Shown here: positions 1,334 through 36,092 of the stretch, one piece after another
Layout: the number at the start of each line of letters is the position of its first letter
How positions within the stretch are numbered: the first letter of the stretch is position 1
DNA from: Bilabrum cf. latius
Taxonomy: Eukaryota
Direction: 5' to 3'
Assembly: GCA_965178125.1 (NCBI GenBank)
Contig: OZ237745.1
Span: forward strand, 930,001 to 994,000
Length of the DNA: 64,000 bases
The notes under the pieces: model-generated
What the model was told of the DNA's origin: nothing
Seen by the model: only the letters and a program-made list of their open reading frames with translations
Databases searched by the model: none
Program-made: the position numbers and the translations under genes

Positions 1334-1581
1334 ACAAGACGCTCAAAGCCAAGCAAGCAATCAGATTCTCGACAAGTGACAAACAGTGTAAAAGTTGTGT
1401 TGCCTTGACGAGCAACAAGAGACGCGGGCCAATACTTATCGAAGGAATGAGGCGAATTCTCCAAACGAATAGCCTGTCCTCGTCACGATCTGTGCCACTC
1501 TACTTGGCGTCTAGGCTGTACCGATCATATTGCTTTCACTTGATGAGCAAACTGAAGCTGTCGAAAGTCTAATACGCTCCA

Positions 1582-3834
1582 ATGGCTTCGGAATTGGAGT
1601 GTCCAATTTGCTGCGAGAGCTATGAAGATATAGCCTATCGGTGCAAATAGTGCAAATTCCTGGCTTGCGAGTCCTGCGTATTGCGCCGTTCCCAGACAAG
1701 CAATCACTGCATCGGCAACTGTTCATTACGGATTGTACCGAGACGCTGGAGGCAACACTACGATGTTGTCGAGGTCAAGCACATTGCATTGGATGACGGG
1801 AATTCAAACGTGTTGTCGCTGAAAATAGCAGAGCAAGGAGAGATTTTCGCAGAATACGAAGCAGAGTTGAAGAAAGCACAGGCTGAATAGAAAGGAAAGG
1901 ATAATCGGTCAGCTCTTCGTACATGCCAAGCATTCGTGCTTCGAGGCATGCACGCCGAGGCCATACGGCTGGGTCGGTTACATGGCATCCCACCAGCGAA
2001 ATTTGGCGTGTCAAATAGCGACGTTCAAGCATACTAGGGTATAGCACGAGCGCAGCTGCGTGCAAGGCAGCAAGCAAGGTTGGCTGCGAGATCCGAACCC
2101 CTCAAGTTCGTGGTATCGCGGATGCAGCGCGATGCTCCAGTGGCAGTTGACGTGGCATCCTCGAGCTCCGTCTCCGAGACTTCGAGCAGCGACGACGAAG
2201 AACAGAGAGAGCCCGCTGAAGCCACCGATGCCAGTATTGCTGCGCGGTCGGCCTGCTAGTAGCACCCAGAGTCTCCGCTAAGTAGCCCGGGCCCGCACCA
2301 CCGCACGGGTGCCATGCCCGAGGCCTCGGCCGCTGGTAGCGCCAGTAGCGACAGCAGCGACAGCGACGGAGATGGAGAGATCCAGGTATTAGCAGATTTG
2401 AATTGGAGGCGCGCAAGGGGGCCTCGATCGGGCGGCAAGCGGGCACAGAGGGGGGCTAGAGCAGGCGCCCTCTCTTCTCGATCGGGCGGCAAGCGGGCAC
2501 AGAGGGGGGCTAGAGCAGGCGCCCTCTCTTCTCGATCGGGCGACAAGCGGGCACAGAGGGGGGCTAGAGCAGGCGCCCTCTCTTCTCGATCGGGCGGCAA
2601 GCGGGCACAGAGGGGGGCTAGAGCAGGCGCCCTCTCTTCTCGATCGGGCGGCAAGCGGGCACAGAGGGGGGCTAGAGCAGGCGCCCTGTCTACTCGCGCA
2701 GGACGCACCAGGCGACTGGCAGGCCCATCATCGCAGGCTTCTTCTGCGGGAATGCGCGCTGTGAGTGCTAGGGGCCGTATCAGTTCCAGAAGACGGGCCC
2801 CTGGACGCACTGGGGGCTCTCAGCACCTTGGACGCACTGGACGTCGCTCGTCTATTTCGCGCAGTGCGCAGGTGCCTTCTTTGATCATGAGGCTGTTCGG
2901 GCAGGCAACGGTTCCAGATCACGCTGGCGGCAAACTTCCAGAAGTCGACCGAAAATCGCTTCCTGGCGCAGGAGCCAGGCTTGTTTCAATCGGCAGCAAT
3001 TCCATGACACCCGCTGAGCAGCGGCTATCGGGTGAATCAAGTAGTGCTATTGTGTCCCCAATCCTGCGATCTGTTCAGTCTGTCGATCTGCTGGATGAAG
3101 ATGATTGTAGCAGTATCAGCGGGAGCGATAGAGAGGAAACTAAGGAGGAGACGGACGGCAAGCACTCAACCGGGGCCCAAGTATGGCGTGCCGACAGCCG
3201 ATCGAATGATTCTGGCGCTGTGGATGCTATGCAGAGCTCTGATGGAGCTGCCCGTGGTTCGAGAAAAGCGATATAGACAGCTTCGCCGAAAGGTAGTGGC
3301 AAGTAGTATGGCTCGTTATCCGATGCTGATGCATCGAGCGATGTGCTCGCGGCAGACCAGTCGACCATGTCAATACTAGAGAGTGATGTAATCCCCAGAC
3401 TTCGGCGCGGTCCACCGGCGAGGTCAACTGAACCCGCGGATAGCTCCGGCTCACGCCAAGACCACTCCCTCCGAGATAGCACGCGAAAATCAGGGCGCAA
3501 AGCTGGGTCTTTAGGCGTTGATGGTGACGGTGAATCGTGTGCGGTGCTGGCTGATGGTGAACGCGACGCTTGCAGCAGAGCTGGTTGCTCGACCGATGGG
3601 GCAGGAGCTCTAGGTTCAGGCAACAAACGCCCCCGTGAGAGCGAAGCTCATAGTTTGGGAGAAGCGGGTGATCAAAGTGGGCTTGCTGGCAAGGAGGCTG
3701 ACAGCAGCCAAGTGAAGCGAGCTCGGACAGAAGCACAACCGGGAGTTGGGCCGAAATCGTGCAGCGCGGAACGCAGTTCGCCTGGTACGGATGATATGGT
3801 TGACGAGCTATTCACGCAACCCGCGTCGTAGTGA
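1582..3834 (+). CDS. N-terminal RING-like zinc-finger protein with long low-complexity/basic tail (~750 aa with TAG=Gln)
   Basis: MASELECPICCESYEDIAYRCK*CKFLACESC...HCIGNC. ORFs 1681, 2314 and 3343 share one frame and are joined only by TAGs (including TAG-TAG at 2257-2262). The gene ends TAG-TGA at 3829-3834. Confidence 0.7.
2423..2692 (+). repeat. 54-bp coding minisatellite, 5 copies (RSGGKRAQRGARAGALSS)
   Basis: Units start at 2423, 2477, 2531, 2585 and 2639 and are near-identical. Confidence 0.95.
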
Positions 3835-3923: not shown

Positions 3924-6900
3924 TCATTGCTCTGACCGGTCTTTCAGTCCACCCTGCATGGCTCTCGACGGAGCGGCGACGTCGAAGTTGAAGTGGCTGC
4001 TGTGGCTCGTGCTAGTGCGCGCTTTACTGTCCGTGTCCCCGCTCGGAAGCCAGGAGTCTTGACCTTGCTTCGTCTTGGCAGCCCAATCGCCAGCTCTACT
4101 GTTCTCGAGCAGTCCTTGGTCTTCCGGGTGCTCCTTTTTCTTGGAGCTGCTCCTTGACGACTGCCTACCGGACCGTGCGGAGGCAGACCCGTGCTGAGCT
4201 AGCTGAGCGTCAGTGGCGATGTCCTGCACCGTGGCCCGCAGGTCAGGCAGCGAGGCCACGAGCTCGCCGGGCAGCAGACTCAGCAGGTTCCGAGCAGACC
4301 GCAGGGGCACTCCCAGCTCCGACACGTTCGGGTAGTAGAACAGCAGCAGGATCAGAGAGAAGACGCCAACGAACGACCAGGACACTACGTTCAACAAGCT
4401 CTTGCCAAAGCTGAGCTTGTCGTCGACCAGGTTGGACAGGAGCGTAGCTGAAACGCTTGCCCCGAGCTTGACGAACGGGTGCTCAATATAGAGTGCGTTG
4501 ACCACTTCCTCAGCCAGCAATGGCGAGCTGGCTAGAAGGTATATCAGTTCGGTGGAGTTCGCATTGGGCATATGGTGCCTCTTTAGTCTCTACCTCGCCT
4601 CTGCTTCTGTTCTGGGCGCGTTGCTTGTCACGATCCTGCCGTGGCTCAGCAGCGCAGACACAGCCGAGATCAGACCTTCAGACAGTACGCCGCCATCCAC
4701 CGCCCTGCACTTCGCCTCGTTGATTCGAGCTGCGTCGGGGTCCAAAGCAATCAGCCCATCAGTGGTGATAGGGCTGTATTTGGCAGCCAGACACACGTCC
4801 TACTCGAAGATGGCCCGCACCTGCCCCTCGGGGGTGGATGTGTCCTGCTCGCTCAGCTTACTCAGGTCGAGCGTGCTGCCTGCCAACTCCTCTGACACAG
4901 CACCCCCGAACACGACCAGGTTAGCGGTAGCGGATAGAGCCTTCTCGTTGTGGTCAGCTTCGTCCAGGATGGGGCCCCATTTGGTCGTGTTGCGCTCGAT
5001 GCTGAGATCGAGCAGGTCGTTCACGTACTGGTTCACATGCCTTCGAGACAGGAACACAGCCATGATGCGCTCGCCCACCGAGCTCAAACTCTGGCTCTGA
5101 ATCAGCTGCAGAGACACCACGAAGAGTAGATGGAACAGCACCAATACGACAGGAAGCAGCAGCCACATCACGGTGCGCTGCACGAAGGACGAAGAGTTGC
5201 GGTAGGGCCGCAGCGTGATCTCCCTGTCAGAGTAAAGCAGCCTGCGCCTGGTCATGCCCAAGCTGTGGTCTTGGTTGTGCTTGACCTTGCTCGACTTCTT
5301 GAGCGTGTCACCAATGGAGTATATCTTCACGCGGCTCTGCTTGTCATCGTCCTGGCCCATCTGCCGCCTGGACGCGGCGCGCAGGACTCCACCGAACCCT
5401 GCTGATGCCGCCCCTGCTTCCGCCACATTGTCCAGCTCAGCATCTGTCTCATTCATGATCAGCTGTCGCTCGGCCTCCTCCTCATCGTCCCCGTTGTCGT
5501 AGTCATCATCCATGCCGTGCGCATCTTCAGCAGTCTCGGCCGCGTCTGCCTCGGCCAGCACCTTCTCAAGCATCAGGCTGGACCGGCCTCGCATGGCTTG
5601 TGCCACGGGCTACGGAATTACCATGAATGCCTCCAGCACATTTGTGGCTCGTGCACCGAGAGAACGGGCTGTCTGCACGAAGCAGAAGAAGGCCACGACA
5701 AGCAGCGAAAGAAGGAGCACACCGCCGGCAACGGAGATCTCAAGCAGAGTCTGCTGCATATAGTCCACGTAGTCTTTCTGCCACAGGTTAGAAGCATGCT
5801 GCATGCGGTGCATCAGGCCGTTGGCATTGGCCCTCACAGTGCGCACATCGCCGTTGCTCACTGTGATGTTCGCGAGGTGCAGCCTGGCGATCCTCTGCAG
5901 CGTGGAGACCATCTCCTCGATCTCTTGCACTAGCGGGACTTCAAGCACGGACAGAGGCTCGTCAGGAGAATGCACGTCGTCCTCGCCGTAGAGACTAGAC
6001 GACAGTTCGTCCTCGCTTTGGTGTTCGTTACCGTCGGGTAGCGTCTTAAAGCTATGCAGCTCCCCTGTCTCGTACGCATGGCCCTCCTTCTTGAAGCCCA
6101 CGTCCTACACCTGCGTGTTGGCCTGCTGCAGCTGCTCGATCGCGAATAGCAGTGCTCGGTTGGACTCGCCCATGCTGCCCAGAGATGCCTCGATGCCCTC
6201 TTGCACGTGTTCTTGCTGCTCGATGATGTGCTCGTCATCTGAAATCGAGGTCTGACGTTGCTAGAGCTGTGCCACTAATGCAGCAGTGGTGTTGAAGTAA
6301 CCAGGAGCAGCAGTCACGGTCTCGTTTAGCATTGCCTCCGCTGTTGCAGATGCAGCAATTCGTCCAATGAGGCTGCTCTCTTCTTCACGCAGCTCCACAA
6401 GAGCCCTCTGGTAAGCATTGGTGACTGCCTTGCGCTCTGCATCCACGATGGCAGCCGTGACCTCACCCCTGGCGAGCTGGAATGCAGCAGTGCGGTGCCC
6501 CACGAGCCAGATGGCCTGCTTGGCTTGTCCCAGCTTGTCCATCTTGATCCCCACCCAAACCACGGCGATGGTGGCGAAGCACACGGCCATGACGATGAGC
6601 ATGAGCAGGAGGTTGCGTATCTTCCACACCTCTGGCTCGGCCATGTCCTTGAGCTGCGAAAGGGCCCTGGACAACTGGCTGCTGGCACTCGAGCCGGCAG
6701 AGCCTACACTGGCTGCCTTGCCGGCCCCTGATCGAGCTGGTGCTCGGGCCATTGGTGGAGCCACAGTATGTCCAGTGTGTGTACGAAATGTGTTCTGGCG
6801 CTGCATACCATGTATTTGGCTACTTCCAGCTGCCATGGCGCCTTGTAGTAGCCTTGATCCATCCGCAGGCCTCCCACTCGACGCGAGAGATCTCCGAGCT

Positions 6901-9900
6901 CCAGTCCCGCCAGATAGACGGGGTAGCACGACCATCACTGTCTGCTCCTGTTGCTGCATATTCCTGGACTAGCGCCGAGTCCTAGATCCGCGACGGCTTG
7001 GGCCGCCTAACATTGCTGGGTTGATTCTCTGTGATCCTGGTGAAAGGAGGTTTGCGTTTGAGCTTGAATGAGTGCGACCAGCCTAATCCTCGCCCGTCTC
7101 TTGCTCCTATGCAGCAATACTCGCCAATGTGGCCTCAACAGCATCTTCATTTCCTTCTTTTGTTGGGCGTTCTTCCTGTTTAGCTGCTGGCAAGACGCTT
7201 GGGCTCCGAACAGTCTCTTTATCTGTATGCTCTAACTCTGCGAGGAGGTTGATATCGTCGCCGCCTGCGACGCCACCAGCCGATGTTGGTCGTTTCGTTT
7301 CTTCCGCTCGATCTTCGGCACGGTCCTGCTCCGCAGCGCCTCGCAGCCCGCGGAGGACGCTCTGTGTGGGGTGGATCCCGTCCTGGTGAGGAGGCGGCAG
7401 CACCACCTGCTCCTTGCGCTCCTTCACCGTGCGGTTGCCGCCGCTCTTGTTCTGCCCGGATCCTTGCTTCTTCTGCGACCTCTGCTTCTTCTTACCGTGC
7501 AAGTGTCCATCGCCATCAGCATCTCGCGATTGGAAGGCCACAGGCTGGGTCTCAGTCAGCCCCGAGGTGGCAGTGCCGGTGCGGCTGAATGGACGGCGGG
7601 CCTACCCGTCGCGTTCACCCTCCTGGTGGGTAGATGAAGCATCTGAGTCGCTCCCAGACCCCAGTCCGTAGCTCTCTCCGCCTGATTGGGTGTAGGTCTG
7701 GCCGTCCTCGTCGTCATCCGCGAAGGAGTCCGTCTCGATCACGTTCAGTCGCACTACGTAGAACACGGGCACTGCCTTGAGCAGCACCTTCTGCGCCACC
7801 CCGATCGCGAGCTTGTCGCCGTCGGACGTGTTCTGCATGGGGATCAGTCCAGGCGCCTTGAGCTTGAACATGTTGGGAACAGTGGCAGTCGCACCTCCCT
7901 GCACCCCCTTGGTCTTCGTGGCCCTGTTGGGCTTGGCCCCTCGGCTTGGACCGGCAGCATAGGACCCATCAGCCGCCATGGACTGCATGCTGCGGCGCCT
8001 GGCGTACATCTGCGAGCGGATGGCCTTGGCTTCCTCCATCGCAGCGATCAGGTTGGTGAAGGAGCCGCTGCTGTCCGCAACGCCAATGGCACCTGCACCA
8101 ACACCGGGAAGTCTGCTCTCACCCTTGGCTTTGCGTCGAGCAAGGCTGCAATCGACGTCGACCACACCGATTGAGTGAGCGCTCGGCATCTCCCCCTCAT
8201 CCTTCAGCGATGAATCGCCCGAAGCCGCCACCGCTGCCGCCGCTCCACTGGTGGAGTGCCTGCGCCCCTTTGTTGTTGTTGTAGTGGTGGGGCCTCGGAC
8301 ATCTGGGTCAGCGATGGTCTGCACCTGGTGACCGCCGTCCTTGCCCCGAGGCACACGCGATTGCCCCCTGTCCTACCTCTGGCCCCCTGACTTGCCCTTG
8401 CTTCCGCTCATGCGCTTGCCCAGAGCGTTTGCCTGCTTCTCATCAGGGCCCTTGTCCTTGCGCCGACGCAGCAGGTCCCGCAGATCAGACACGCCGCTCT
8501 GGCGAGAAATGGCCTGCAGCTCGGCCTTGCTCAGCTGAATGTCACCGCCAGTGAAGTCCTGCGCCACGGTGGGGAAAAAGTTCGCGGCCGACACGTGCTC
8601 CTGCATCAGCATCTCGCCCTCCAAGCCCAGGAATTCACACGCGCGGGCCGTCGCAGCGTATATCCTGAAGTTGGACGCGGCATCGCCGATGAACAGGAAG
8701 GCCTCATTGGTGTTGACAGGGTCCAGCGTGGCGGTGAAGCGGGGCTCGGACGACTCCCGGTCGGGCGGCGACTCTCGGACCACAAGCCAAATGGGCATGA
8801 TGGAGCCGTCCCGCGTCTGTCCAAACAGGAGCCTCTGGTGACCCACAACCATGGACTTGCGCTTGCGGCGGAAGCGAAGCAGCATGCCGTCATGCTGCTG
8901 CTTGAGCGGCGGAGGCACGATCGTTCTTATATTCATTCCAACGAAGGCGCTCTGAGAGTACCCAAACAGGCGGCATGCAGCTAGATTTGCACTGATTACA
9001 TCGCCGAGGCTGCTCGACGCTCCACTGATCGACACGATGGCGGCATTGTCGTTGAGGAACGATGCCGTCTTGATGCTGTCTCCGAACTTCACGTTCTTGA
9101 TCTGGCGCATCCGGTTCCGCATTCCTGTCTCGTCCAGGCGCTCGGCCTTGGTCAACAGCTCCGTGGCCTTAGCAGGGAGGTTCTTCAGGTCGATCAGGTG
9201 CTGAGCATACGCTCGCAGCGTCTTGGTCGAGGTGGGATTCAGCTCCAGCAGCCTGGTGAAGGCAGCCTCGATCCGAGTCAGCGTGCCCTGCAGTGCCACA
9301 CCGGTGGTCTCCACCGCCACCAGGTCCGGCGTGCCCTCCGACATGATGTCCCATAGCTGCTGCAGCAGACGGTACGCCTCGATGCGCAGCTGAGCCGACT
9401 GCTTCTGCTCCTGGTCGAACATGATGCGCTCGATGGGACCCAGCCCGCTGCCGTCGCTCTCGTTGAGTCTGCGCAGCCGTGAGTAGATGTAGAACCTCGA
9501 ATCGAAGGCGGGCTGTCTCTTGAGTGCCCTGGCCAGGCACAGACACTCCTGGGTGTGGAACATGAAGTGGTACCTGTAAAAGGTGCTGGCCAGCAGCGCC
9601 GACACCTCGCTCGTGGAGAAGTGCTCGATGCAGTGTTCGTATCCCACGCGGGCCGACTCGAGCAGTCGCTCCTTCTCGGCCTCCAGCTCCTCGATGGTCA
9701 GCTGGTCGGCGGACTGCAGCGGCATGCCCAGGCTGGCATGGTGCCTGGCCAGCTGGGTCAGCAAGCGGCGCTGTCGGTCATCAGCCGTCTCTGCGGGACC
9801 ATCACTCTTGCCCGCCTTGCCTGCAGCCACCTCGCCATCGCTGTCAGATGTCTCACCCGTGGTGTCATTGCGATGCTCTTCCTCGTCGTCGTTGTTCCAT

Positions 9901-11388
9901 TCCTCGTCGTCGCCTTCGCCGCGCAGGTGAGCGGCGGCCGAGCCTCCCCGATCCGCCACCGCCTGGAACGCCGCGTACAGCTGCATCCGGTGGTTGCACC
10001 ACACGGCCACGTCGTAGGGGGACCTGAGCTGGTCCACGGGGGTCTGCGTGATGGCATTCGAGTACCTCAGTGAGACGGACATGGCCGCCAAGAAGGCCAC
10101 CGGGGAGCACACATACAGCAGCAACACGGTGTTCTCCACGCCGGCCAGCTGGGCCGCCCCAAGCGAGATGGCCGAGATCGTGAACACCGCCCAGATGCCC
10201 GCCTGGAACGCGTTCACCCACGCGTGCACGTGCGGCTGGTATGCCACGAAGGCCCACATGGCTGCCAGGCCAAAGGCCACCAGCACGATGGTCAAGAAGG
10301 CCGAGCCCACCAGATGCTCGTCCAGCACGTTGTAGATGAAGGCCAGCACCAGCTTGGCCAGCAGGATGCCGGCGTCCACCCGCCCCGTGCTGCGAGCGGC
10401 CCACGACTGAGAGGCCGGGTCCCTGTCCACGTACACGGCTGCCACCGTGAGCGACATGAGGGCGAAGCCGACCAGCAGGATGGCCAGCAGGATGGCGATG
10501 ACGATCCTGCCGGGGCTGTTGCACTGCATGCCGGTGCCCATCCAGGAGTCGTGGTGGGAGGGGCAGCTGAGGCCCCGGAGCATGATGGAGCTGAGCGGCA
10601 GGTAGAGGATGGTAGTGGACAGCGTGGCGACCGAGCGCAGGATGCGCAGCACGAATGAGCTGTGCGGGAGTTCGTAGTGGAAGTTGTAGGCCGTCAGGAC
10701 GGTCAGTCCGAGGAAGAGCCCGACGTAGACAGCTCCCACGGCAAGGAGAGCGAGGTAGGCGGCCGTGCCGCCGACGACGTCCATTCTGGAGGTGGTGGTG
10801 TAGCTGAGTCCAACAGCCACAGGATAGACGGCCTCTGAATCTTCCCATGGCTGCTGGTAGGCTCGGTTGATTCTGCGAGGCGATCGCAAGCTGGAACTTG
10901 AAACGTTACACTTGCTATCAAAAACAGCCGAGACCGAGCACACCTACAGCATCCGGTTTAGTGTAAGCATAGTAATCGGGTAGACATCAATTGATGATTT
11001 GCCTCGGGTGCCTCAAACCCGAAAGGTGTCACCCAACAAGCGCCGTCGTCCTCGCCTGCCCAGATTGGACCACTACATCACAAAACGCAACTATTCCACT
11101 TTCGATAAAGGTGCAGGTAATTGCATTTGCTATTAATTATACATAAGGACAAGTTGCTATCCCAGGTAGTGCAGCTCGAAGGGACGCTGCAGTTGTGAAG
11201 TGAATTCTGGCTCACGTGAATACCATCGTCTAGGCTAACTATAGAAGCAGGCCGATGTAGATAGCCCGCTACGTGATCCCAACATCTTTGAGTAGAATGT
11301 ATAGAGCCCCTGAGAAAGCGGACGAAACATTTGCAAAGGCGCGCTCAAGCCAACTGGCCTGCGTCTTGTCCAAGGTCCCACCCGACAT
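3924..11388 (-). CDS. TmcB/TmcC-like multi-pass membrane PAS-domain protein, copy A (~2373 aa; exons 11388-11216 and 10872-3924)
   Basis: N-terminal multi-TM region, then a helical region, a PAS domain (NLAACRLFGYSQSAFVGMNIRTIVPPPLKQQHDGML) and further TM pairs. All ORF pieces are in one frame and joined by TAG. GT-AG intron 11215-10873; TGA stop. Confidence 0.8.
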
Positions 11389-11660
11389 GGTTTCTACTTT
11401 CAATCTGTTTGCAAGTCTATTCGAGCAATAATTTACTCCAATACAGAATTGCCGAGTCGCAGCTGTAACTTCTGCCCACCTATCGTTAAATGTGCGCGAA
11501 CAGTCGGCAGTCACTTCCCTGTCAATCCAAGTCGCTCACCACGTCCTCTGGCGATTTTGGTCGCAACTTGAAGCATCTGGGCGGCCATGGCTCGAATACC
11601 ATTCGCGAATGAGGTGAAGGATTATACTAGCCGCATCAATCTCATTTCATGCTGAACTCA

Positions 11661-14350
11661 TCACAATGCGCCCTCCTCCTCGCCCTCCTCCAGAGCCGCC
11701 CGCAGCAGGTACTCCGCAAGGTAATCCACGGGGTCGGTGGGCTGCGCCGCGCACACCTCAAGCAGACCCTTGCTCAGGGTCGGCAGCACGTTCTCGGCGA
11801 GAAATCACGCAGTGGCGCGGGTACGCAGAGAGCAGGAGCTCGCGCTCGTGCTCTGCAACCAGTGCCAGCCTCCTCTTTGCCTCCGCTTCGTTCGCCTTCC
11901 GCCTGGCGTCCTCCTCGGCGGTCTCCTTGGCGCCGGCCTCTTCTCTTGCCTTCGATTCAGCTTCCTCCACTGCGCGCCGCGCCGATTCCTCCTGATCCAG
12001 CTCTTCCGCTGTCGGGTGGTAGTTGAAGGGCTTGCCGCCCCTCTCGATGTAGGGGCACAAGGCAGCAAGGTGCTCCTCTACCTGCACCACGCTGGGTGCA
12101 CCTTCACCCCCGCCCTCGCCCTCTTCGTCACCAACTCCTTCGGCATCGGCGCCCTCGCCGCCTGCTCCAGAGGCAGGGCCGCTTCCCGGGGCAGGAGCAG
12201 ATGCGCTGCTCGCGGGGACGGGGGACCGCTCGATCACCTCGATCCCGGCAGATGACTCGAAGAATCCGGCGACGGTCTTGGCGGCATCCTCGGGGTTGCG
12301 CTTCCTCCAGAGCGCCAGGCGCCTCTTCAGCCTGTCGCTCTGGCTCTCGCCCCCCTCTTCCTTGCTCTCCTCGACCGAATCCGCTGTTCCTTGGGCACTG
12401 GTCACGATCTTCTCGATCGCAGAGTCGGCAGCGTCCAGGATGATCACGCCCGTCGGCACGAGGTCTGGCTCACGGGCGTGGGTTCCGGCTCTTCCTCATC
12501 CTCCGCTTCTTCCTCGCCGTCGCCACCACCGCCAGCGCCCTCCTCCTCTTCCTCCTCCTCTTCCCCAGCCAAATCGTCCTCCTCCACACCCTCTCTCAGG
12601 TACCCCTCAGCCTCCGAATAGGTCCTCGGAAACCCGTCCAGCACGTAGCCCCGGTTCCTGCACCGAGGCCTTCGCAGCCTCCACCGCATCACTCGCGCCA
12701 ACAATTTGTTCCCCAGCCGCCCCTTGGAGGCCAGCACAGCCTCAACCCTGGCAGCTAGCTGCAGCGCGTAATCGTGGGCAGCAGCACCGTCCTCGTCCTC
12801 CGGGCTCCATGCCGGGCTTTTCCTCCTCCTCCTCCTCGTCCCCTGCGCCGCCCTCTTCGCCGCCCTCCGCGGGCGCCACGTCGTCACCCGCGTCCACGGC
12901 CTCCCCCTCCTCGCCCCCAACGGCACCCTTCGAAGCCCCCTTCGCAGCGGCAGCCGCAGCCGCGTCCGCTCGCTCCTTGTATCCCCTGAGTTCGGCAAGG
13001 GCGGATGGGACGTCAATCTGCTCCACGTAGTAGTGCTTGGCAATCGCCTCCGCAAGCACAGACTTGCCCGCTCCTGGAGCGCCTCCCACCACCACTCTCA
13101 CCGGCCGGATCCCCCTAGTCTTGCGGTACTCCGCCGCCACGTCAGCCGCCCTCTCCGCGATACCTTCCTGGCACTTCCATTCGATGCCCAGGGACTGGGC
13201 TGCGCCATCCGCGGCGTCAATCTTGAGGTCCAGCTGGAGCTGGTCCACGGCCCCTGTCTGTTCCTCGCTTGCGCCAGTCGCCTGTGACTCCAGTAGCGCC
13301 GTTTCTGCCTCGGCAGGGTCCATGACACGGATGCCCCTCGATCCTTGCGCCCGGGAAATGGCCGCGAAGACCTGCCGGAGGGAGCTCTGCGCTCCGTCTA
13401 GCGCCAGCACGTACTCCTGCTCCGTGCCCCCCTCTGCCACGCCTGCGACCACGGCCGCGCAGTCATCGACGTGCACCATGGGTACGAAGTTGCGACCCTC
13501 CGGTTGGGCGAGCGCGGGGACGAGCAGCTGCTCCTGCTCGGCCTCCCACGCTTGCTTAAAGTACCTGTGGAGAGGCCCTTCTCCCGCGCCGTATGGAAGT
13601 CCTGCCGCCACCACGTGGGCGCGCAAGCCCTCGCGGGCCAATGCCATGACGTGCGCCTCCAGAAGTTTCATGTGCTCGTGTTCGGGAGCCGCCCGCCTGC
13701 GCTTGTATCGCTCCTCTGAAATGTCCGTGCCGTCCTTGGGGCGCCTGGTTCGAGCCCACGTGTGGATGGTGCTGATCGCGACCACGGCGCGACCAGCGTC
13801 ATCATCGCCGTCCTCTGCATCGTCACCTGCCGATGCAGCAATTCGACTTGGAGGCGGTAGCGGATTCCTGAATACTGCGATGTACAAAGGAGTGGCAACT
13901 GCACAAATGCGGTTGGCAAGCGCGCCGGTATTGTGGACCAAAGCCGCCCGCTCCGACATTACTCACGTTCAACCATTGATGCAGCCTCATCGTGGGCATC
14001 CTTGATGTTTAAAATTACAACGCGCGTTTGTTGTGCAAGCTACAAGGCTTCGGCGCTGCCAATCTGCAACTCGGAGAAAACGCGGATACTTCTGCGAATT
14101 AGTGCACCACTTCAAGGATTACTGAAATCTGTCAAAAATAATACATTAAACTTACCTGCACAGAGTCAGTAAGCCCTTCCACTGGCTTTCCAGTCGAGGT
14201 GGAGCCCGCAATCCGGGGTCGTGGCGGTCGATCCTCCGCATCGTCAGTGTCGTTTCCTCCAATCCCAGCCAGTCGACGAACCACTGCCTTACCAATAAAT
14301 GAATCAGCTCCGCTTACAAAAGCGATAGGGGGCTACCGCCTGGGTTGCAT
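11661..14350 (-). CDS. AK7: Adenylate kinase 7-like flagellar protein (Rossmann-like N-terminus, AK core, C-terminal Dpy-30); about 4 apparent frameshifts
   Basis: AFVSGADSFIGKAVV; AISTIHTWART; GLPYGAGE; P-loop GAPGAGKS; CRNRGYVLDGFPRTY; KPFNYHP; Dpy-30 VLPTLSKGLLEVCAAQPTDPVDYLAEYL. Two introns near 14155-14065 and 13966-13876. Single-base shifts near 12815, 12472 and two near 11800-11822. Confidence 0.88.
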
Positions 14351-14531
14351 GACAGGGAAATGTGCCGAGGTCCGTTGCGAAAGTGGTAGCGTGTGCTTTT
14401 GGCCCCCGAATTTGCCCCAACGGATTCATGCATTCAAGTTGCAGTTTGCCTTTCTAGCTTACGCGTTGCCCTAGCTGAGGCCATCTCGGTACCTCTACAA
14501 AGATTGCTGAATTATGGCTCAAATAAGCGGC

Positions 14532-15938
14532 ATGGAAGGCGGAGGAGGTGGGAGCTAGGCTTATGAGTACTCTGCAGCTCCACAGGCTATGCAACCTGGG
14601 ATGGAACAGCCGGCGTATCGAAGCGAGACAGGGGCCCACAAGTGAGGTTGTATTGCTAACTTGTAGGCTTCGTCCCGCGCACGCGCTTTCACAACCTTTG
14701 ATGTCCTTGAGGGCGCAATCTTGCCCATCCTTGCCCCTATCCTCTGCTCGCCTCCACTGGATACGTCGCAGAGCACCTGCGGTCAACTTGATGTATGATA
14801 GGCGTGTATACAGAGGCAGCACTTTTGCAGCAAAGATTCTTACACCGGTAAGCATTACGATGCGCCACTTGAATCACAACAAAGACATCGATTCATCGTC
14901 GTCATTTCGCACTTTCTGTATCGACACAATTTCATTGAGGTATCGCAGTCAGAGCAGGCGGAGCAGGAACGTCTCAAGAAACAGGACGCAGAGAGATAGC
15001 AGCGGCGAGCCGCGGTGCGACGCCGCAAGCAAGCCGCGCGGCAAGTCCCCCGCACGCCGCCGCCGGTGCAGGGGCGCGTCCACGCCGACACCCAGACAGA
15101 AACATTCTTGGAGGTTCTCGTGGATCGCCCCGAAGAGGAGGAGATGGGCACTCAGACGGACGCCGCCATGGACAGGCCCGACCTCCCTGTGTACGTGCCC
15201 AAAAAGCTGGGGGTGGACTAGGAGACGCAAGTGGAGGTGGGCGAGCTCTTTGATTTCGACTTCGAGGTGGAGCCCATTTTGGAGGTACTCTGCGGGAAGG
15301 CACTGGAGCAGAGTCTCATGGAGGTTCTGGAAGAGGAGGAGCTGGCAGCCATCCGGGCCCACCAGGAGGAGTTCGAGCAGATCAGGGCCCAGGAGCTCGC
15401 AGAGGTGCAGAGGCTGGAAGCGGAGGCGAGGAGAAAGGAGGCGGAGCGAAGGAGAAGAAAGGAGCAGGAGATGCAGAGGCTCAAGAGGGAGGACCAGACG
15501 AGGGCCAAGGTCGCTGCAATCGCGTTCGCTAGGCAGTTCGTCGGGCAGGTGCGCGACTCGGTCTTTGGCCGGCTGGCCACGGAAGGGCACTTCTACGACC
15601 CGGTTGCGAAGGAGATGGAAGAAGCTGTGATGCCCAAGCTGCTGCAGCAGGCAGAGGCTAAGACTGACAGCAGGGCGACGGCAAGGCGCATCGCGGACGA
15701 TCTCATCCGGAACGCTCTCAGGCTGAGAGCAGAGCGAGCAGGTGCAGCGGCGGAGCAGAGAAGAGATAAGGTTAATTAGAAGATCATTGAGGAGAGGGAG
15801 GCCCGCGAGGCAGCTGCCGCTGAAGAGGAGCAAAAGAGGTTGAAGGAAGAGGAGCGGTTGCGAAAGGAAGCAGAAGCAGCAACTGCAGACGATGAAGAGG
15901 GAGATGGCGAAGATGGAGATGGCGATGATGATGAATGA
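14532..15938 (+). CDS. RSP3: Radial spoke protein 3
   Basis: NLMYDRRVYRGSTFA; TPPPVQGRVHADTQTETFLEVL; ELFDFDFEVEPILEVLCGKALEQSLMEVLEEEEL. Two GT-AG introns; in-frame TAGs including 15219 and 15777; TGA stop. Confidence 0.93.
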
Positions 15939-16185
15939 ATAGCTCTTTTTCGTGGATTGGGTGCTTTCGTAATCCGTGAAGCTGCGGGAGCAACACCCGC
16001 AGACTTGCGACCAACTCGATTCACCGATGCGTTTTGTCGCCGCGGCGAAAAAAAAATCAAGGTGTTCGCACATACGCGCACCTCTCACTGCGCGCCAGAC
16101 GCTAAAAACCTGCTTTCACGAGGCTCTGCGATAAAGTATTGGTTGGGCTTCTCATTGGCAAGGGAGAGCTGCAACGTTCATTGAT

Positions 16186-19100
16186 ATGTCAGGTGTCCTT
16201 AAGCAAACACAGGCCAGTTGGCTTGAGAGGGCATACTCCAATGTCTCTGCAGCCTTTTCAGGCGCTCTTTACATTCTTCTTAAAGACGTAGGGGTAACTC
16301 AAAGAGCCATTTATGTTGGTTTGCTACTCTAGTTAGCTCAAACCATGGTATTTACGTGAGGTAGTGTCGAAGTGTAGTGAACTTCCACTTTTCTGTGTCG
16401 ACTACAAAATGCCTTTCACAGCTGCAACCATCACGAGTTTGGGGCAGCGCATAGGACTATAGTAGACCATACTGATTGAAATTTGCGTTGTCAGCTGGCA
16501 TGGCAAGTAGACGCGGCTGGCGAGGCAATCCGTTGCGGGTGTTACAAACCAGGTCCTGCCTTGTTATGGACCATGAAGTACACATTGAAGCAAACATTAC
16601 TAATGCAAGCTTTGCCCAATCGAAGTCATTGTATCTATCGAAGATTGGCTTGAATTGATTCAGCATGCTTTACAAACGCGTCTCATGGCTATCGATACCA
16701 TTGCAGTCCCATCCGTTTATCTCCTCAATTACCTGGCATCGCAGAATCAACCGAGCCTACCAGCAGCCATGGGAGGATTCAGAGGCCGTCTATCCTGTGG
16801 CTGTCGGACTCAGCTACACCACCACCTCCAGAATGGACGTCGTCGGCGGCACGGCCGCCTACCTCGCTCTCCTCGCCGTGGGAGCTGTCTACGTCGGGCT
16901 CTTCCTCGGACTGACCGTCCTGACGGCCTACAACTTCCACTACGAACTCCCGCACAGCTCATTCGTGCTGCGTATCCTGCGCTCGGTCGCCACGCTGTCC
17001 ACTACCATCCTCTACCTGCCGCTCAGCTCCATCATGCTCCGGGGCCTCAGCTGCCCCTCCCACCACGACTCCTGGATGGGCACCGGCATGCAGTGCAACA
17101 GCCCCGGCAGGATCGTCATCGCCATCCTGCTGGCCATCCTGCTGGTCGGCTTCGCCCTCATGTCACTCACGGTGGCAGCCGTGTACGTGGACAGGGACCC
17201 GGCCTCTCAGTCGTGGGCCGCTCGCAGCACGGGGCGGGTGGACGCCGGCATCCTGCTGGCCAAGCTGGTGCTGGCCTTCATCTACAACGTGCTGGACGAG
17301 CATCTGGTGGGCTCGGCCTTCTTGACCATCGTGCTGGTGGCCTTTGGCCTGGCAGCCATGTGGGCCTTCGTGGCATACCAGCCGCACGTGCACGCGTGGG
17401 TGAACGCGTTCCAGGCGGGCATCTGGGCGGTGTTCACGATCTCGGCCATCTCGCTTGGGGCGGCCCAGCTGGCCGGCGTGGAGAACACGGTGCTGCTGCT
17501 GTATGTGTGCTCCCCGGTGGCCTTCTTGGCGGCCATGTCCGTCTCACTGAGGTACTCGAATGCCATCACGCAGACCCCCGTGGACCAGCTCAGGTCCCCC
17601 TACGATGTGGCCGTGTGGTGCAACCACCGGATGCAGCTGTACGCGGCGTTCCAGGCAGTGGCGGATCGGGGAGGCTCGGCCGCCGCTCACCTGCGCGGCG
17701 AAGGCGACGACGAGGAATGGAACAACGACGACGAGGAGCAGGCACAGGACCCTGCCACGGACGAGACATCTGACAGCGATGGCGAGGTGGCTGCAGGCAA
17801 GGCGGGCAAGAGTGATGGTCCCGCAGAGACGGCTGATGACCGACAGCGCCGCTTGCTGACCCAGCTGGCCAGGCACCATGCCAGCCTGGGCATGCCGCTG
17901 CAGTCCGCCGACCAGCTGACCATTGAGGAGCTGGAGGCCGAGAAGGAGCGGCTGCTCGAGTCGGCCCGCGTGGGATACGAACACTGCATCGAGCACTTCT
18001 CCACGAGCGAGGTGTCGGCGCTGCTGGCCAGCACCTTTTACAGGTACCACTTCATGTTCCACACCCAGGAGTGTCTGTGCCTGGCCAGGGCACTCAAGAG
18101 ACAGCCCGCCTTCGACTCGAGGTTCTACATCTACTCACGGCTGCGCAGACTCAACGAGAGCGACGGCAGCGGGCTGGGTCCCATCGAGCGCATCATGTTC
18201 GATCAGGAGCAGAAGCAGTCGGCTCAGCTGCGCATCGAGGCGTACCGTCTGCTGCAGCAGCTGTGGGACATCATGTCGGAGGGCACGCCGGACCTGGTGG
18301 CGGTGGAGGCCACAGGTGTGGCGCTGCAGGGCACGCTGACTCGGATCGAGGCTGCCTTCACCAGGCTGCTGGAGCTGAATCCCACCTCGACCAAGACGCT
18401 GCGAGCGTATGCTCAGCACCTGATCGACCTGAAGAACCTCCCTGCCAAGGCCACGGAGCTGTTGACCAAGGCCGAGCGCCTGGACGAGACAGGAATGCGG
18501 AACCGGATGCGCCAGATCAAGAACGTGAAGTTCGGGGACAGCACGAAGAAAGCATCGTTCCTCAACGACAACGCCGCCATCGTGTCGATCAGTGGAGCTT
18601 CGACGAGTCTCGGAGAGATCCTATCCGCCAGTACGGCAGCATGCCGCCTGTTTGGGTACACTCGGAGTGCGTTCATCGGGCAAAACGTGAGGACCATTGT
18701 GCCTCCGCCGCTCAAGCAGCAGCATGACGGCATGCTGCTTCGCTTCCGCCGCAAGCGCAAGTCCATGGTTGTGGGTCACCAGAGGCTCCTGTTCGCGCAG
18801 ACGCGGGACGGCTCCATTATGCCCATTTGGCTCGTGGTCCGAGAATCGCCGCCCGACCGGGAGTCGTCCGAGCCCCGCTTCACCGCCACGCTGGACCCTG
18901 TCAACACCAATGAGGCCTTCCTGTTCATCGGCGATGCCGCGTCCAACTTCAGGATGTACGCTGCGTCAGCCCGCGCGTGTGAATTCCTGGGCTTGGAGGG
19001 CGAGATGCTGATGCAGGAGCACGTGTCGGCCGCGAACTTCTTCCCCACCGTGGCGCAGGACTTCACTGGCGGTGACATTCAGCTGAGCAAGGCCGAGCTG

Positions 19101-22100
19101 CAGGCCATTTCTCGCCAGAGCGGCGTGTCTGATCTGCGGGACCTGCTGCGTCGGCGCAAGGACAAGGGCCCTGATGAGAAGCAGGCAAACGCTCTGGGCA
19201 GGCGCATGAGCGGAAGCAAGGGCAAGTCAGGGGGCCAGAGGTAGGACAGGGGGCAATCGCGTGTGCCTCGGGGCAAGGACGGCGGTCACCAGGTGCAGAC
19301 CATCGCTGACCCAGGTGTCCCAGGCCCCGCCACTACAACAACAACAAAGGGGCGCAGGCACTCCACCGGTGGAGCGGCGGCAGCGGTGGCGGCTTCAGGC
19401 GATTCATCGCTGAAGAGTGAGGGGGAGATGCCGAGCGCTCACTCGAACGGTGCGGAGGGCGAGGAAAGTGGAGTCACGCGGCGCAAAGGCAAGGGGTGGA
19501 GCAAGCTTCGCGGTGTTGGTGCAGGCGCCATTGGCGTTGCGGACAACAGCGGCTCGTTCACCAACCTGATCGCTGCGATGGAGGAAGCCAAGGCTATCCG
19601 CTCGCAGATGTACGCCAGGCGCCGCAGCATGCAGTCCATGGCGGCTGATGGGTCCTATGCTGCCGGTCCAAGCCGAGGGGCCAAGCCCAACCGGGCCACG
19701 AAGACCAAGGGGGTGCAGGGAGGTGCGACTGCCACTGTTCCCAACATGTTCAAGCTCAAGGCGCCTGGACTGATCCCCATGCAGAACACGTCCGACGGCG
19801 ACAAGCTCGCGATCGGGGTGGCGCAGAAGGTGCTGCTCAAGGCAGTGCCCGTGTTCTACGTGGTGCGACTGAACGTGATCGAGACGGACTCCTTCGCGGA
19901 TGACGACGAGGACGGCCAGACCTACACCCAATCAGGCGGAGAGAGCTACGGACTGGGGTCTGGGAGCGACTCAGATGCTTCATCTACCCACCAGGAGGGT
20001 GAACGCGACGGGTAGGCCCGCCGTCCATTCAGCCGCACCGGCACTGCCACCTCGGGGCTGACTGAGACCCAGCCTGTGGCGTTCCAATCGCGAGATGCTG
20101 ATGGCGATGGACACTTGCACGGTAAGAAGAAGCAAAGGTCACAGAAGAAGCAAGGATCCGGGCAGAACAAGAGCGGCGGCAACCGCACGGTGAAGGAGCG
20201 CAAGGAGCAGGTGGTGCTGCCGCCTCCTCACCAGGACGGGATCCACCCCACACAGAGCGTCCTCCGCGGACTGCGAGGCGCTGTGGAGCAGGACAGTGCT
20301 AGAGATGGAGAGGATGAAACGAAGAGGATGGAGTCGGGCGGTGGCGTTGCGGGCGGTGACGATGACGATCTCCTCGCTGATCTCGAGGGATCTGTCGAGG
20401 CAGCCGCACCAAAGCAGGAGAACGATTCAGAACTGCCTTCCGCTCGGCTTGGGGTGACGACTGGTGCGACTGCTCCCAAGACGCACGATACGGGCGTAAT
20501 GGAGACTGCAGCCACCGCTAACATACAGGAGCTAGACTCTGCCATGGAGTCTGCTCGCAAGACGGAGAGTGGTCCAAGCACTAGGCCCGCCAACAGCGGT
20601 GCATCTTATGGAAAGGAGCAAGAGGACGAGGAGGCGCAGAGACTTTTGGCGCCATCCAGCTCTGGCGCCCGCCCTCACACTCATGTCCAGGTCACGATGG
20701 ACGACATGGAATACCGCCCCAAGCGGTCCCTGTCTAGAGGTTCACGTGAATCTGCCGCAGCCTCTTCGGCAATCGGGAGCAGAAGGACCTCCACGAGCCG
20801 GTCCAGAAGACCTTCGGGGGTGGCTGGCCAGTTGACTAAAAGAAGGTCTGCAGTGTCAAAGCCTGGGCCAAGCACGGGCCCCGCACCAGGAGGACGCCGC
20901 ATGTCGGCTGGGTCTTTCCACGCAAAAGCTCTGCAGAGACACAGCACTCACACCGGCCACACGATCGTGCCAGCACAAGCTCCAGCACACCGCCCACCTG
21001 GTGCTGGCAAGGCAGCCAGTGTAGGCTCCTCCGGCTCGAGTGCCAGCAGCCAGCTGTCCAGGGCCCTATCGCAGCTCAAGGACATGGCCGAGCCAGAGGT
21101 GTGGAAAATACGCAACCTCCTGCTCATGCTCATCGTCATGGCCGTGTGCTTCGCCACCATCGCCGTGGTTTGGATGGGGATCAAGATGGACAAGCTAGGA
21201 CAAGCTAAGCAGGCCATCTGGCTCGTGGGGCACCGCACTGCTGCATTCCAGCTCGCCAGGGGTGAGGTCACGGCTGCCATCGTGGACGCAGAGCGCAAGG
21301 CAGTCACCAATGCTTACCAGAGGGCTCTAGTGGAGCTGCATGAAGAAGAGAGCAGCCTCATTGGACGAATTGCTGCGTCTGCAACAGCGGAGGCAATGCT
21401 AAACGAGACTGTGACTGCTGCTCCTGGTTACGTCAACACCACTGCTGCATTAGTGGCATAGCTGTAGCAACTTCGGGCCACGATTGCAGATGACGAGCAC
21501 ATCATCGAGCAGCAAGAACACGTGCAAGAGGGGATTGAGGCATCTCTGGGCAGCATGGGCGAGTCCAACCGAGCACTGCTATTCGCGATCGAGCAGCTGC
21601 AGCAGGCCAACACGCAGGTGCAGGACGTGGGCTTCAAGAAGGAGGGCCATGCGTACGAGACAGGGGAGCTGCACAGCTTCAAGACGCTACCCGACGGTGA
21701 CGAGCACCAGGGCGAGGACGAACAGTCGTCTAGTCTCTACGGCGAGGACGACGTGCATTCTCCTGACGAGCCTCTGTCCGTGCTTGAAGTCCCGCTGGTG
21801 CAAGAGATCGAGGAGATGGTCTCCACGCTGCAGAGGATCGCCAGGCTGCACCTAGCGAACATCACAGTGAGCAACGGCGATGTGCGCACCGTAAGGGTCA
21901 ATGCCAACGGCCTGATGCACCGCATGCAGCATGCTTCCAACCTGTGGCAGAAAGACTACGTGGAATATATGCAGCAGACTCTCCTTGAGATCTCCGTTGC
22001 CGGTGGTGTGCTCCTTCTTTCGCTGCTAGTCGTGGCCTTCTTCTGCTTCGTACAGACAGCCCGTTCTCTCGGTGCACGAGCCACCAATGTGCTGGAGGCG

Positions 22101-23954
22101 TTCATGGTGATTCCGCAGCCCGTAGCACAAGCCATGCGAGGCCGGTCTAGCCTGATGCTTGAGAAAGTGCTGGCCGAGGCAGACGCGGCCGAGACTGCTG
22201 AAGATGCGCACGGCATGGATGATGACTACGACAACGGGGACGATGAGGAGGAGGCCGAGCGACAGCTGATCATGAATGAGACAGATGCTGAGCTGGACAA
22301 TGCGGCGGAAGCTGGGGCGGCATCAGCAGGGTTCGGTGGAGTCCTGCGCGCTGCGTCCAGGCGGCAGATGGGCCAGGACGATGACAAGCAGAGCCGCGTG
22401 AAGATATACTCCATTGGCGACACGCTCAAGAAGTCGAACAAGGTCAAGCACAACCAAGACCACAGCTTGGGCATGACCAGGCGCAGGCTGCTTTACTCTG
22501 ACAGGGAAATCACGCTGCGGCCCTACCGCAACTCTTCGTCATTCGTGCAGCGCACCGTGATGTGGCTGCTGCTTCCTGTCGTATTGGTGCTGTTCCATCT
22601 GCTCTTCGTGGTGTCTCTGCAGCTGATTCAGAGCCAGACTTTAAGCTCGGTGGGCGAGCGTATCATGGCTGTGTTCCTGTCTCGAAGGCATGTGAACCAG
22701 TACGTGAACGACCTCCTCGACCTCAGCATCGAGCGCAACACGACCAAATGGGGCCCGATCCTGGACGAAGCTGACCACAACGAGAAGGCTCTATCCGCTA
22801 CCGCTAACCTGGTCGTGTTCGGGGGTGCTGTGTCAGAGGAGTTGGCAGGCAGCACGCTCGACCTGAGTAAGCTGAGCGAGCAGGACACATCCACCCCCGA
22901 GGGGCAGGTGCGGGCCATCTTCGAGGAGGACGTGTGTCTGGCTGCCAAGTACAGCCCTATCACCACTAATGGGCTGATTGCTTTGGACCCAGACGCAGCC
23001 CGAATCAACGAGGCGAAGTGCAGGGCGGTGCAGGGTGGCGTGTTGACCGAAGGAGTGATCTCGGCTGTGTCTGCGCTGCTGAGCCACGGCAGGATCGTGA
23101 CAAGCAACGCGCCTAGAACAGAGGCAGTGGCGCGGCAGAGACTAGAGAGGCACCATATGCCCAATGCGAACTCCACCGAACTGATATTCCTTCTAGCCAG
23201 CTCACCGACGTTGGCTGAGGAGGCGGTCAACGCACTCTACATTGAGCATCCGTTCGTCAAGCTGGCAGCTGGAGTGGCTGCTACCCTGCTTTCCAACCTG
23301 GTCGACGACAAGCTCAGCTTTGGCAAGAGCTTGCTGAACGTGGTGTCCTGGTCGTTCGTCGGCGTCTTCTCTCTGATCCTGCTGCTGTTCTACTACCCGA
23401 ACGTGTCGGAGCTGGGAGTGCCCCTGCGGTCTGCTCGTAACCTGCTGAGTCTGCTGCCCGGTGAGCTCGTGGCCTCGCTGCCTGACCTGCGGGCCACGGT
23501 GCAGGACATCGCCACTGACGCTCAGCTAGCATCACACGGATCTGCTTCTGCACGGTCCCGAGGTCACTCAGTTAGAGGCAGTGGTGCTGACAGTGACCAG
23601 GAGAACAAGAAGCTGCTTGGTAATGGAGACTCTGACAGTGATGATGAAGAGGGCATGCTTGGGACACGTCAAGGCGCCCAAAACATGGACGGCCATAGGC
23701 AGTCATCGGGAAGGGACATCAACGGAAGCCGAGGCAGCCACTTTAACTTTGACGTGGCTATTCCATCCAAGGCGGGGTCGATGGGTGCTGGATCGGGAGA
23801 GCAATCTGGCTCGCTCTCCATGGCTAGAGGTGCTCATGATCAGAAGCGAATGGCCAACCTCTCGCGGAGCTCCTCACAGGCACCGCCACGCCGCCCCTCG
23901 CAAGTAGTACCAGAACCGGAAGGACTGCTGGACCGTGGTGGGCGTCGATTGTGA
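16186..23954 (+). CDS. TmcB/TmcC-like multi-pass membrane PAS-domain protein, copy B (~2459 aa; exons 16186-16355 and 16745-23954)
   Basis: Inverted paralogue of copy A with the same intron position and phase. ORFs 16665, 19263, 20076 and 21522 are in one frame and joined by TAGs; TGA stop. Confidence 0.8.
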
Positions 23955-35614: not shown

Positions 35615-36092
35615 CTTGCAGCACTCTTTGAGGGGGGACAGTGGCTTGTTTTCGTCCAGCAGTACCATCCAATGCTTCTTTGCTCGCACGAGACGGCTGA
35701 TCGCTGCCCAACTGCAGCTCCGGGACCTGGAGCGCAGCACTGTCGTCGAACGGAACGAACAGGGGCAGGGGTGCTCCAGTCGCGCTGCGCTTGCACCATT
35801 GCCCCAGCTGCTCCGCCACGCGAGAGAGGCAAGGCAGCTCCAAGGGAATGTCCTCAGGCTGCGGCGGCTGCTGTTTATCCACCGTGGTGCTCGTGCTCTC
35901 GTTGCCGGTACTCCACGAAGCTAGCTGTTTCTCGTTGACTCCATATCGCATCGCTTCCCAAGTCTTGGCTGCCTCCCGGCAAGCGGTCATGGCTAGCTCT
36001 GAGGGAATGTCACTCGCGAGCACCAGCTGCACCTCGTGCTCCTCGTCGGGTGCCCTGGTCTTGATCTCTTTGCGCTCGCTCTCAACAGCACC
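35615..36092 (-). repeat. 478-bp inverted duplicate of 33701-34178 (coding fragment of the TBC gene)
   Basis: The reverse complement matches 33701-34178 with only a few substitutions. Confidence 0.92.

Follow-up and report, generated by a model that had tools for sequence, protein, structure and literature searches.

The 64,000-nucleotide stretch analysed here (Bilabrum cf. latius, GenBank assembly GCA_965178125.1, contig OZ237745.1, positions 930,001 to 994,000 of the forward strand; hereafter the window, with positions counted from its first letter) carries two long paralogous genes arranged head to head, copy A on the minus strand and copy B on the plus strand, in which the stop triplet TAG recurs in frame. 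A self-comparison with BLAST returned them as inverted copies, with 7240-10881 matching 20377-16736 at 95.9% identity (3,652 columns) and 4170-6728 matching 23558-21000 at 95.4% identity (2,560 columns). The two matches contain 15 and 2 gaps, and both arms of each are equal in length. Between the copies lies a unique spacer of 4.8 kb (11389-16185), which is outside the duplication and in which at least one further gene is encoded on the minus strand.

Each copy is predicted to consist of a 5' exon, a GT-AG intron in phase 2 and a large second exon. This reading is drawn because a conserved stretch running from an ATG to GTGAG gives way to dissimilar sequence of 343 nt in copy A and 389 nt in copy B, which ends in CGCAG where high identity begins. 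Exon 1 of copy A (11216-11388, minus strand) starts with the ATG at 11388 and includes in-frame TAG at 11269, 11239 and 11230; the predicted intron (10873-11215) leads into exon 2 (3924-10872), which closes with a TGA stop at 3924-3926 and has ten in-frame TAG codons, their lowest plus-strand bases at 8373, 7602, 7107, 7083, 6969, 6261, 6105, 5610, 4800 and 4590. One more TAG, at 10944, is in frame with exon 2, sits in the intron and is non-coding. On the plus strand, exon 1 of copy B (16186-16355, ATG at 16186) has an in-frame TAG at 16330 and, at 16300 and 16339, CAA codons that face TAG codons of copy A. Its predicted intron (16356-16744) has the same GTGAG and CGCAG ends, and exon 2 (16745-23954, TGA stop at 23952-23954) holds in-frame TAG at 19242, 20013, 21459 and 21465.

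When spliced in this way, copy A (11388-11216 joined to 10872-3924) measures 7,122 nt with 13 TAG codons, and copy B (16186-16355 joined to 16745-23954) measures 7,380 nt with five. Both end on TGA, have a length that is a multiple of three and are free of internal TAA and TGA. A first, sequence-only reading of this DNA had described two intact frames of about 7 kb; the frames are indeed uninterrupted by TAA or TGA, but the codon pairs near 11230-11269 that it had counted with them sit in the separate 5' exon and not in the same open frame. As read from the sequence, the product of each copy would comprise a hydrophobic multi-pass region, a TPR_TmcB domain, a PAS domain, a low-complexity linker of about 700 residues and a C-terminal membrane part. 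In copy A, all of these elements, including the long and apparently disordered linker, are assigned to exon 2.

The two exons appear to differ in their history. The introns of the two copies share 57% identity, against 56% for shuffled sequence, and exon 2 is a mosaic of patches of 85-99.7% identity with two replaced stretches. High identity begins 9 nt ahead of the intron acceptor site. The sequence suggests that an old duplication came first, leaving exon 1 synonymously saturated and the introns unalignable, and that exon 2 would later have been homogenised in patches, most simply by gene conversion confined to that exon. A recent partial duplication or re-duplication that stopped at the acceptor site is the alternative to conversion.

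Eleven codon pairs linking TAG positions of the two copies had been listed in the sequence-only reading, and all eleven were recovered exactly; in a protein-guided codon alignment each of the exon-2 pairs falls in a single column. In exon 1, TAG of copy A faces CAA of copy B at 11269/16300 and 11230/16339. In exon 2 it faces CAG at 6105/21621, 5610/22116 and 4590/23136, and the reverse arrangement, CAG in copy A and TAG in copy B, occurs at 6267/21459. TAG is shared at 11239/16330, 8373/19242, 7602/20013 and 6261/21465, and a single pair, 4800/22926, sets TAG against GAG. At aligned sites the partner of an unshared TAG is thus a glutamine (Gln) codon in six of seven cases and GAG in one. Three further in-frame TAG codons of copy A, at 7107, 7083 and 6969, had been left out of that list; these fall in low-complexity sequence in which A and B are unalignable, with only 5-6 of 21 neighbouring residues identical. 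The earlier claim that TAG and CAG exchange in both directions does not follow from these pairs: the two kinds of unshared TAG/CAG pair could both reflect CAG-to-TAG changes, made in different copies, and their direction needs an outgroup.

Could the copies be decaying pseudogenes, or an artefact of assembly, with the TAG codons as nonsense mutations? In exon 2 the exchanges themselves give this idea some footing. The 206 base differences observed among 1,990 well-aligned exon-2 codons, which contain five unshared and three shared TAG, were thrown at random on the same codons, keeping the same kinds of change. This neutral simulation expects 3.1 new TAG, 0.67 TAA and 0.86 TGA, and neither TAA nor TGA arises with a probability of 0.21. 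CAG is the origin of 49% of the simulated new TAG, as the commonest expected nonsense change, and the probability that at least four of five pair with CAG is 0.17. Because the simulation matches them, the exon-2 exchanges are not informative by themselves, and a young pseudogene pair could look alike. Recent copies decode a codon poorly, since CAG-to-TAG is the expected nonsense mutation, whereas old copies under selection decode it well.

Exon 1 offers such an old comparison. Its 56 codon pairs comprise 19 that are identical, 29 that differ synonymously and eight that differ non-synonymously (37 changed). As raw proportions, the synonymous difference (pS) is 0.91, beyond Jukes-Cantor saturation, and the non-synonymous difference (pN) is 0.095. 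These proportions mark exon 1 as a duplicate of long standing on which purifying selection acts strongly. Within it, TAG stands opposite CAA twice, each time requiring two base changes, and opposite TAG once. By arithmetic from the share of Gln codons in the genes of the window (4.2%), the chance of meeting a Gln codon at each of two unrelated partners is about 0.002, and the TAG/CAA pairs exceed chance. The likening of the paralogue pair to a Rosetta stone therefore applies to the saturated exon 1, together with the use of TAG across the window and the alignments to homologues of other organisms, and not to exon 2, where the exchanges equal the mutation expectation. The value of pS also lies above the 0.75 saturation level, which hints that the copies differ in their preference for synonymous codons.

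Selection was examined further in exon 2 through the ratio of non-synonymous to synonymous substitution (dN/dS), calculated by the Nei-Gojobori method (NG86). For unfiltered segments downstream of successive TAG codons, dN/dS is, in order, 0.54, 0.44, 0.67, 0.46, 0.37, 0.086, 0.061, 0.20 and 0.19, the last four values belonging to the C-terminal third. Over the 1,990 well-aligned codons, a set chosen by a filter that uses amino-acid identity and so biases dN downward, the ratio is 0.15 overall (p 4.9e-37 against neutrality). In the codons that follow the first exon-2 TAG it is also 0.15 (binomial p 1.4e-25), and in those that follow the last it is 0.135 (p 7.5e-8). The MAFFT alignment is gap-free in columns 1-3,641 and 4,237-6,887, and the frame is kept throughout. 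Purifying selection after the TAG codons had been predicted from the sequence and is what was found; neutral evolution and frameshifts after them, named beforehand as contrary outcomes, were looked for and neither was seen. Both copies are under purifying selection, as functional head-to-head paralogues, and their in-frame TAGs are ordinary Gln codons. The ratios far below one, the lack of frame-breaking indels, the conservation of exon 1 through synonymous saturation and the occurrence of TAG in housekeeping genes of the window (DHX16, ELP3, PWP2 and SND1) all argue against pseudogenes. A haplotype fold-back in the assembly is made less likely by the spacer, which is unique, and by the introns, which cannot be aligned. 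We consider decay or artefact extremely improbable.

The use of TAG as sense extends through the window, along which G+C content ranges from 52 to 66%. With standard or bacterial stops there is no open reading frame (ORF) of at least 1,000 codons. With TAG as sense there are six, among them the two paralogue frames, of 2,362 and 2,431 codons on opposite strands. Treating TAA as sense still yields none, and the longest ORF grows only from 533 to 557 codons. Treating TGA as sense yields two; this comparison serves for TAG and TAA and is confounded for TGA, the commonest stop triplet (825 and 925 occurrences), whose removal lengthens random frames. In 14 Pfam-supported ORFs (13,475 codons), 70 TAG, no TAA and no TGA occur in frame, and the other two frames of the same ORFs contain 91 and 72 TAG, 38 and 50 TAA, and 246 and 291 TGA. 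From these counts it follows that TAG is not avoided in frame, and that TAA and TGA are missing. TAG is present in frame in 14 of 15 large ORFs, the exception being the C-terminal piece of SND1, and accounts for roughly 11% of the Gln codons that the window's genes use. Its share of the Gln-type codons is low in the housekeeping genes ELP3 (1/20) and DHX16 (5/62), and high in the DDE_1 transposase ORF described below, the TBC gene (14/81) and ORF 36137-39883 (12/65).

TGA forms 16 of the 17 ORF ends examined and TAA the remaining one; two of the 17, those of the N-terminal pieces of PWP2 and SND1, are probably internal to introns. UGA terminates, given these ends and its absence in frame against 246 and 291 occurrences in the other frames. 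The sole gene ending on TAA is SND1-like, and the last query residue aligned lies about 110 residues before that TAA; for comparison, the human chain 3bdl_A has 74 residues beyond its own last aligned residue. If UAA were read as UAG is, with TAA/CAA matching TAG/CAG, 17.7 in-frame TAA would be expected in the 13,475 codons. UAA is not a sense codon: it is lacking in frame, no long ORF is gained by reading through it, and one gene ends on TAA near its expected C-terminus.

These results bear on the alternative that UAG and UAA both mean glutamine (NCBI table 6) and that TAA is merely rare in a genome of 60% G+C. UAA and UAG usually change meaning together, according to PMC5304391 and PMC11687900, and the base composition of the window is in keeping with a scarcity of TAA. 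The shortfall from 17.7 expected codons to none, the unchanged ORF lengths and the TAA terminator of the SND1-like gene speak against it, and make it very unlikely.

The identity of the encoded residue was assessed in homologue alignments. For the DHX16/Prp2-type gene (ORF 55590-59033, plus strand), 96 homologues were aligned out of 120 matches listed, after near-duplicate and odd-length rows were dropped. The TAG at 57972-57974 (residue 795) falls within the stretch QRxGRAGR, and glutamine is found there in 96 of 96 aligned homologues. The stretch is helicase motif VI (Q-R-x-G-R-A-G-R), and its conservation was measured here. At residue 1030, also TAG, glutamine is the commonest residue (54/96), and at the TAG of residue 784 it is second (28/96) to isoleucine (40/96). 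For the PWP2/UTP1-like WD40 gene, 65 relatives were chosen from 150 listed by length and by the number of matched stretches. Its TAG at 30763-30765 (minus strand, residue 46) aligns with glutamine in 33 of 65 relatives, the commonest residue; the position is Q in the relative P0250 (95% identical) and H in P0381 (77% identical). Residue 144, another TAG, is variable and is Q in just 3 of 65 relatives, yet it is Q in both of these close ones. In the C-terminal part of PWP2, residue 372 is Q in 4 of 56 relatives, and residues 430, 479 and 542 lie in unaligned tails and are uninformative.

The single TAG/GAG pair at 4800/22926 and the lead of isoleucine over glutamine at DHX16 residue 784 could be used to argue that TAG stands for another amino acid (variant codes elsewhere use Glu, Leu, Tyr, Ser or Lys) or is decoded ambiguously. 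These two sites have to be set against the invariant glutamine of DHX16 residue 795, the two further sites where glutamine is commonest, and the six Gln codons among seven unshared partners, two of them CAA that need two base changes. Such decoding is, in our estimate, highly improbable. Taking the DHX16 and PWP2 columns together with the paralogue partners, glutamine is the only residue that fits.

TAG is translated and conserved as glutamine, and TAA and TGA are not sense codons. The first of these statements holds because of the constraint downstream of the TAG codons, the saturated exon 1, the window-wide counts and the invariant glutamine of the DHX16 motif; the proposal of the sequence-only reading that TAG is a third Gln codon is borne out on each of these lines. 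The window is eukaryotic nuclear DNA in which UAG is very probably read as Gln and UGA (mostly) and UAA as stop, the code of NCBI translation table 15. By analogy with lineages that have this code (PMC5304391), among them Iotanema, where the GTS motif of eRF1 is altered, one of the N-domain motifs that read the third base of the stop codon, UAG would be read by a tRNA-Gln with anticodon CUA, which would not read UAA, and eRF1 would have weakened or lost its recognition of UAG. We infer this mechanism from those lineages, because no tRNA or eRF1 gene lies within the window.

The same DNA would be expected if UAG were edited to CAG in the mRNA by U-to-C conversion and the standard code kept: both predict glutamine at TAG, and DNA alone cannot separate editing from reassignment. 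At least 70 sites would have to be edited in 14 ORFs of one 64-kb window, with TAA spared, and we know of no such nuclear U-to-C editing system. Editing is accordingly given hardly any credence here. Reassignment of UAG to Gln, on the other hand, has several precedents (PMC11687900).

Several observations count against reassignment and should be weighed with it. Neutral mutation is enough to account for the TAG/CAG exchanges of exon 2. The low dN/dS of well-aligned codons owes something to the bias of the filter, and the unfiltered value for the whole of exon 2, unalignable stretches included, is 0.40. Of nine TAG sites set against homologues, five give no information. ARAGORN found no tRNA gene and Rfam gave no match within the 64-kb window, and no eRF1 domain was present among the 26 ORFs of the window scanned with Pfam. 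Finally, ORFs called with TAG as Q cannot by construction end in TAG, and TAG terminators escape detection.

TAG might thus have a double meaning, as glutamine inside genes and as a terminator at some of their ends. Context-dependent codes of this kind are known from Condylostoma and Blastocrithidia. Three ORFs have TAG within the last five codons before TGA, where TAG could be the real stop and TGA a back-up. In ORF 1573-3834, TAG is the last codon before TGA (3829-3834); in an ion-transport (ion-channel-like) ORF it encodes residue 734 of 736, the third codon from the end (48163-48174); and in the HSP20 ORF (44372-45676) it specifies residue 431 of 435 and is thus the fifth-last codon. The near-terminal position may be due to chance or may be a sign of a leaky TAG stop at gene ends. 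No gene needs a TAG terminator, however, since a TGA or TAA follows close by in each ORF. Also against a TAG stop, the residues that follow TAG in the HSP20 ORF include V-N-V, which may correspond to the I-x-I/V motif at the C-terminus of small heat-shock proteins. A double meaning therefore seems unlikely to us, and a glutamine codon throughout remains the preferred reading of TAG.

By their domains, the paralogues are genes for TmcB-like, PAS-domain membrane proteins, as predicted from sequence. TPR_TmcB (PF25474) scores 62.6 bits in copy A and 62.0 bits in copy B (Pfam cut-off 27), and PAS_9 scores 29.2 bits in copy B (cut-off 27) and 23.9 bits, below the cut-off, in copy A; the PAS_9 stretch aligns with a Cafeteria protein. 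Among named proteins, Cafeteria roenbergensis FNF31_01906 comes closest: residues 13-774 align at 25% identity (E 5e-52), and the C-terminal membrane part gives a weak match (E 0.001). The order of TPR_TmcB followed by a putative PAS domain is that of TmcB/TmcC-type PAS membrane proteins such as FNF31_01906 and Polysphondylium violaceum CYY_006059. Named relatives share just 21-25% identity with the paralogues, whose middle third is lineage-specific low-complexity sequence. The nearest ESM Atlas clusters have the same domains, and their labels are mostly from ciliates and green algae. In the spacer, the other gene is represented by two minus-strand ORF pieces (11761-12459 and 12745-13962), and shows a stretch of P-loop type (GxxGxGKS) as well as tails of acidic, low-complexity sequence. 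Family matches of these pieces are weak, at or below cut-offs (Zeta_toxin 22.3 bits, AAA_16 20.7 bits), and neither contains an in-frame TAG.

Elsewhere in the window, ORFs match CEP76, a PWP2-like WD40/Utp12 protein, RabGAP-TBC, a DDE_1 transposase, HSP20, an ion-transport domain, ELP3, a RING protein, a DHX16/Prp2-type helicase, SND1-like Tudor-SN and Ypi1. The DDE_1 (pogo/Tc5-type) transposase ORF (40061-43270, plus strand) has the most in-frame TAG codons of any ORF, with 16 TAG against 26 CAG and 21 CAA. Should this prove to be a mobile element, it would be one adapted to a code with TAG as Gln. The relative P0250 (628 residues) is 92-95% identical to the PWP2-like ORF 29236-30900 (minus strand) and continues into sequence that is intronic in the window; it therefore comes from a close relative or a second haplotype that has already been sequenced. 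Its glutamines at both TAG positions are known at the protein level and may be CAG/CAA or TAG in its gene. A tandem array at 28411-28999 (166-nt unit, 3.6 copies, 99% matches) occupies the gap between the PWP2-like ORF pieces, where about 45 conserved residues are missing and a small exon with introns is probably located. A second array at 2423-2696 (54-nt unit, 5.1 copies, 98% matches) lies within ORF 1573-3834, which has no Pfam match, and is translated there as a repeat of 18 residues. An inverted repeat of 478 bp with 98.5% identity (33701-34178 and 35615-36092) places one of its arms within the 3' portion of the RabGAP-TBC ORF; the second arm falls shortly before the adjacent minus-strand gene ends.

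The lineage was judged from the same matches. Among the matches listed, the best full-length match of ELP3 is from Bicosoecida sp. CB-2014 (71% identical, with 94% of the query covered), Cafeteria roenbergensis provides the best match of the paralogue and the best named protist match of DHX16, and the closest named matches reach about 64% identity for DHX16 and 71-78% for ELP3. An ELP3 tree was built from 35 rows, comprising the query and 34 of 120 matches listed (the named ones and the best unnamed ones). The query lies on a long branch (0.68) in a poorly supported group with Bicosoecida sp. CB-2014 and no starred clade; this group is separated, with 82/89 support, from the rows of oomycetes, ciliates and opisthokonts. 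The window probably derives from a stramenopile near the bicosoecids, a placement we hold with low confidence and draw from best matches only, because the tree leaves the query without a starred clade.

A change of a stop codon to sense is a rare event of an already known kind, and UAG alone has become Gln in few eukaryotes (PMC11687900). Reassignments of UAR to Gln are attributed there to many ciliates, ulvophytes, Hexamita, Streblomastix and Amoeboaphelidium; neither these groups nor the UAG-only ones agree with the best matches of the window. The window resembles table 6 codes in that a stop codon one transition away from CAG/CAA has become Gln, and differs from them in that its TAA is not sense (none against 17.7 expected). 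Users of table 6 also include dasycladalean algae and Amoeboaphelidium protococcarum. The same codon-to-residue change occurs in TAG-recoded phages under table 15 (crAss-like and Lak phages). Those, however, are bacterial viruses that change code in the course of an infection, whereas the present DNA is nuclear and eukaryotic and carries introns of spliceosomal type. An origin from a phage or a bacterium with table 15 was considered and is ruled out by the GT-AG introns and by the eukaryote-only genes CEP76, ELP3, DHX16 and PWP2.

No report of UAG as Gln in a stramenopile or bicosoecid nuclear genome was found in the full-text literature searched, a scope that leaves most subscription journals outside. 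The code change belongs to a type already known, and its lineage is probably one from which it has yet to be described. It is conceivable, though we regard it as distinctly the less likely case, that this is the first stramenopile (a bicosoecid-like heterotrophic flagellate) with a non-standard nuclear code, and a further independent origin of UAG-only reassignment, in a G+C-rich genome in which almost all termination falls to UGA. Were the origin independent, it would provide a new comparison point for the evolution of tRNA-Gln(CUA) and eRF1 in a tidy, intron-poor, G+C-rich genome. A UAG-only reassignment bears on how eRF1 distinguishes UAG from UAA, and annotation of this genome with the standard code would fragment most long genes.

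The closest counterparts are the eukaryotes in which UAG alone means Gln. According to PMC11687900 and PMC5304391, these are the fornicate Iotanema spirale and the ciliates Protocruzia tuzeti, Hartmannula sinica and Trochilia petrani. Like these table-15 eukaryotes, the window has in-frame TAG at conserved Gln positions and keeps TAA as a stop, with TAG uncoupled from TAA. Hartmannula sinica and Trochilia petrani use UAA as their terminator, according to PMC11687900, whereas UGA is the main terminator in the window. In contrast to the known cases, the window is a gene-dense 64-kb stretch of 60% G+C with GT-AG introns, and its best matches point to stramenopiles and not to ciliates or metamonads, a distinction on which the single-gene tree is undecisive.

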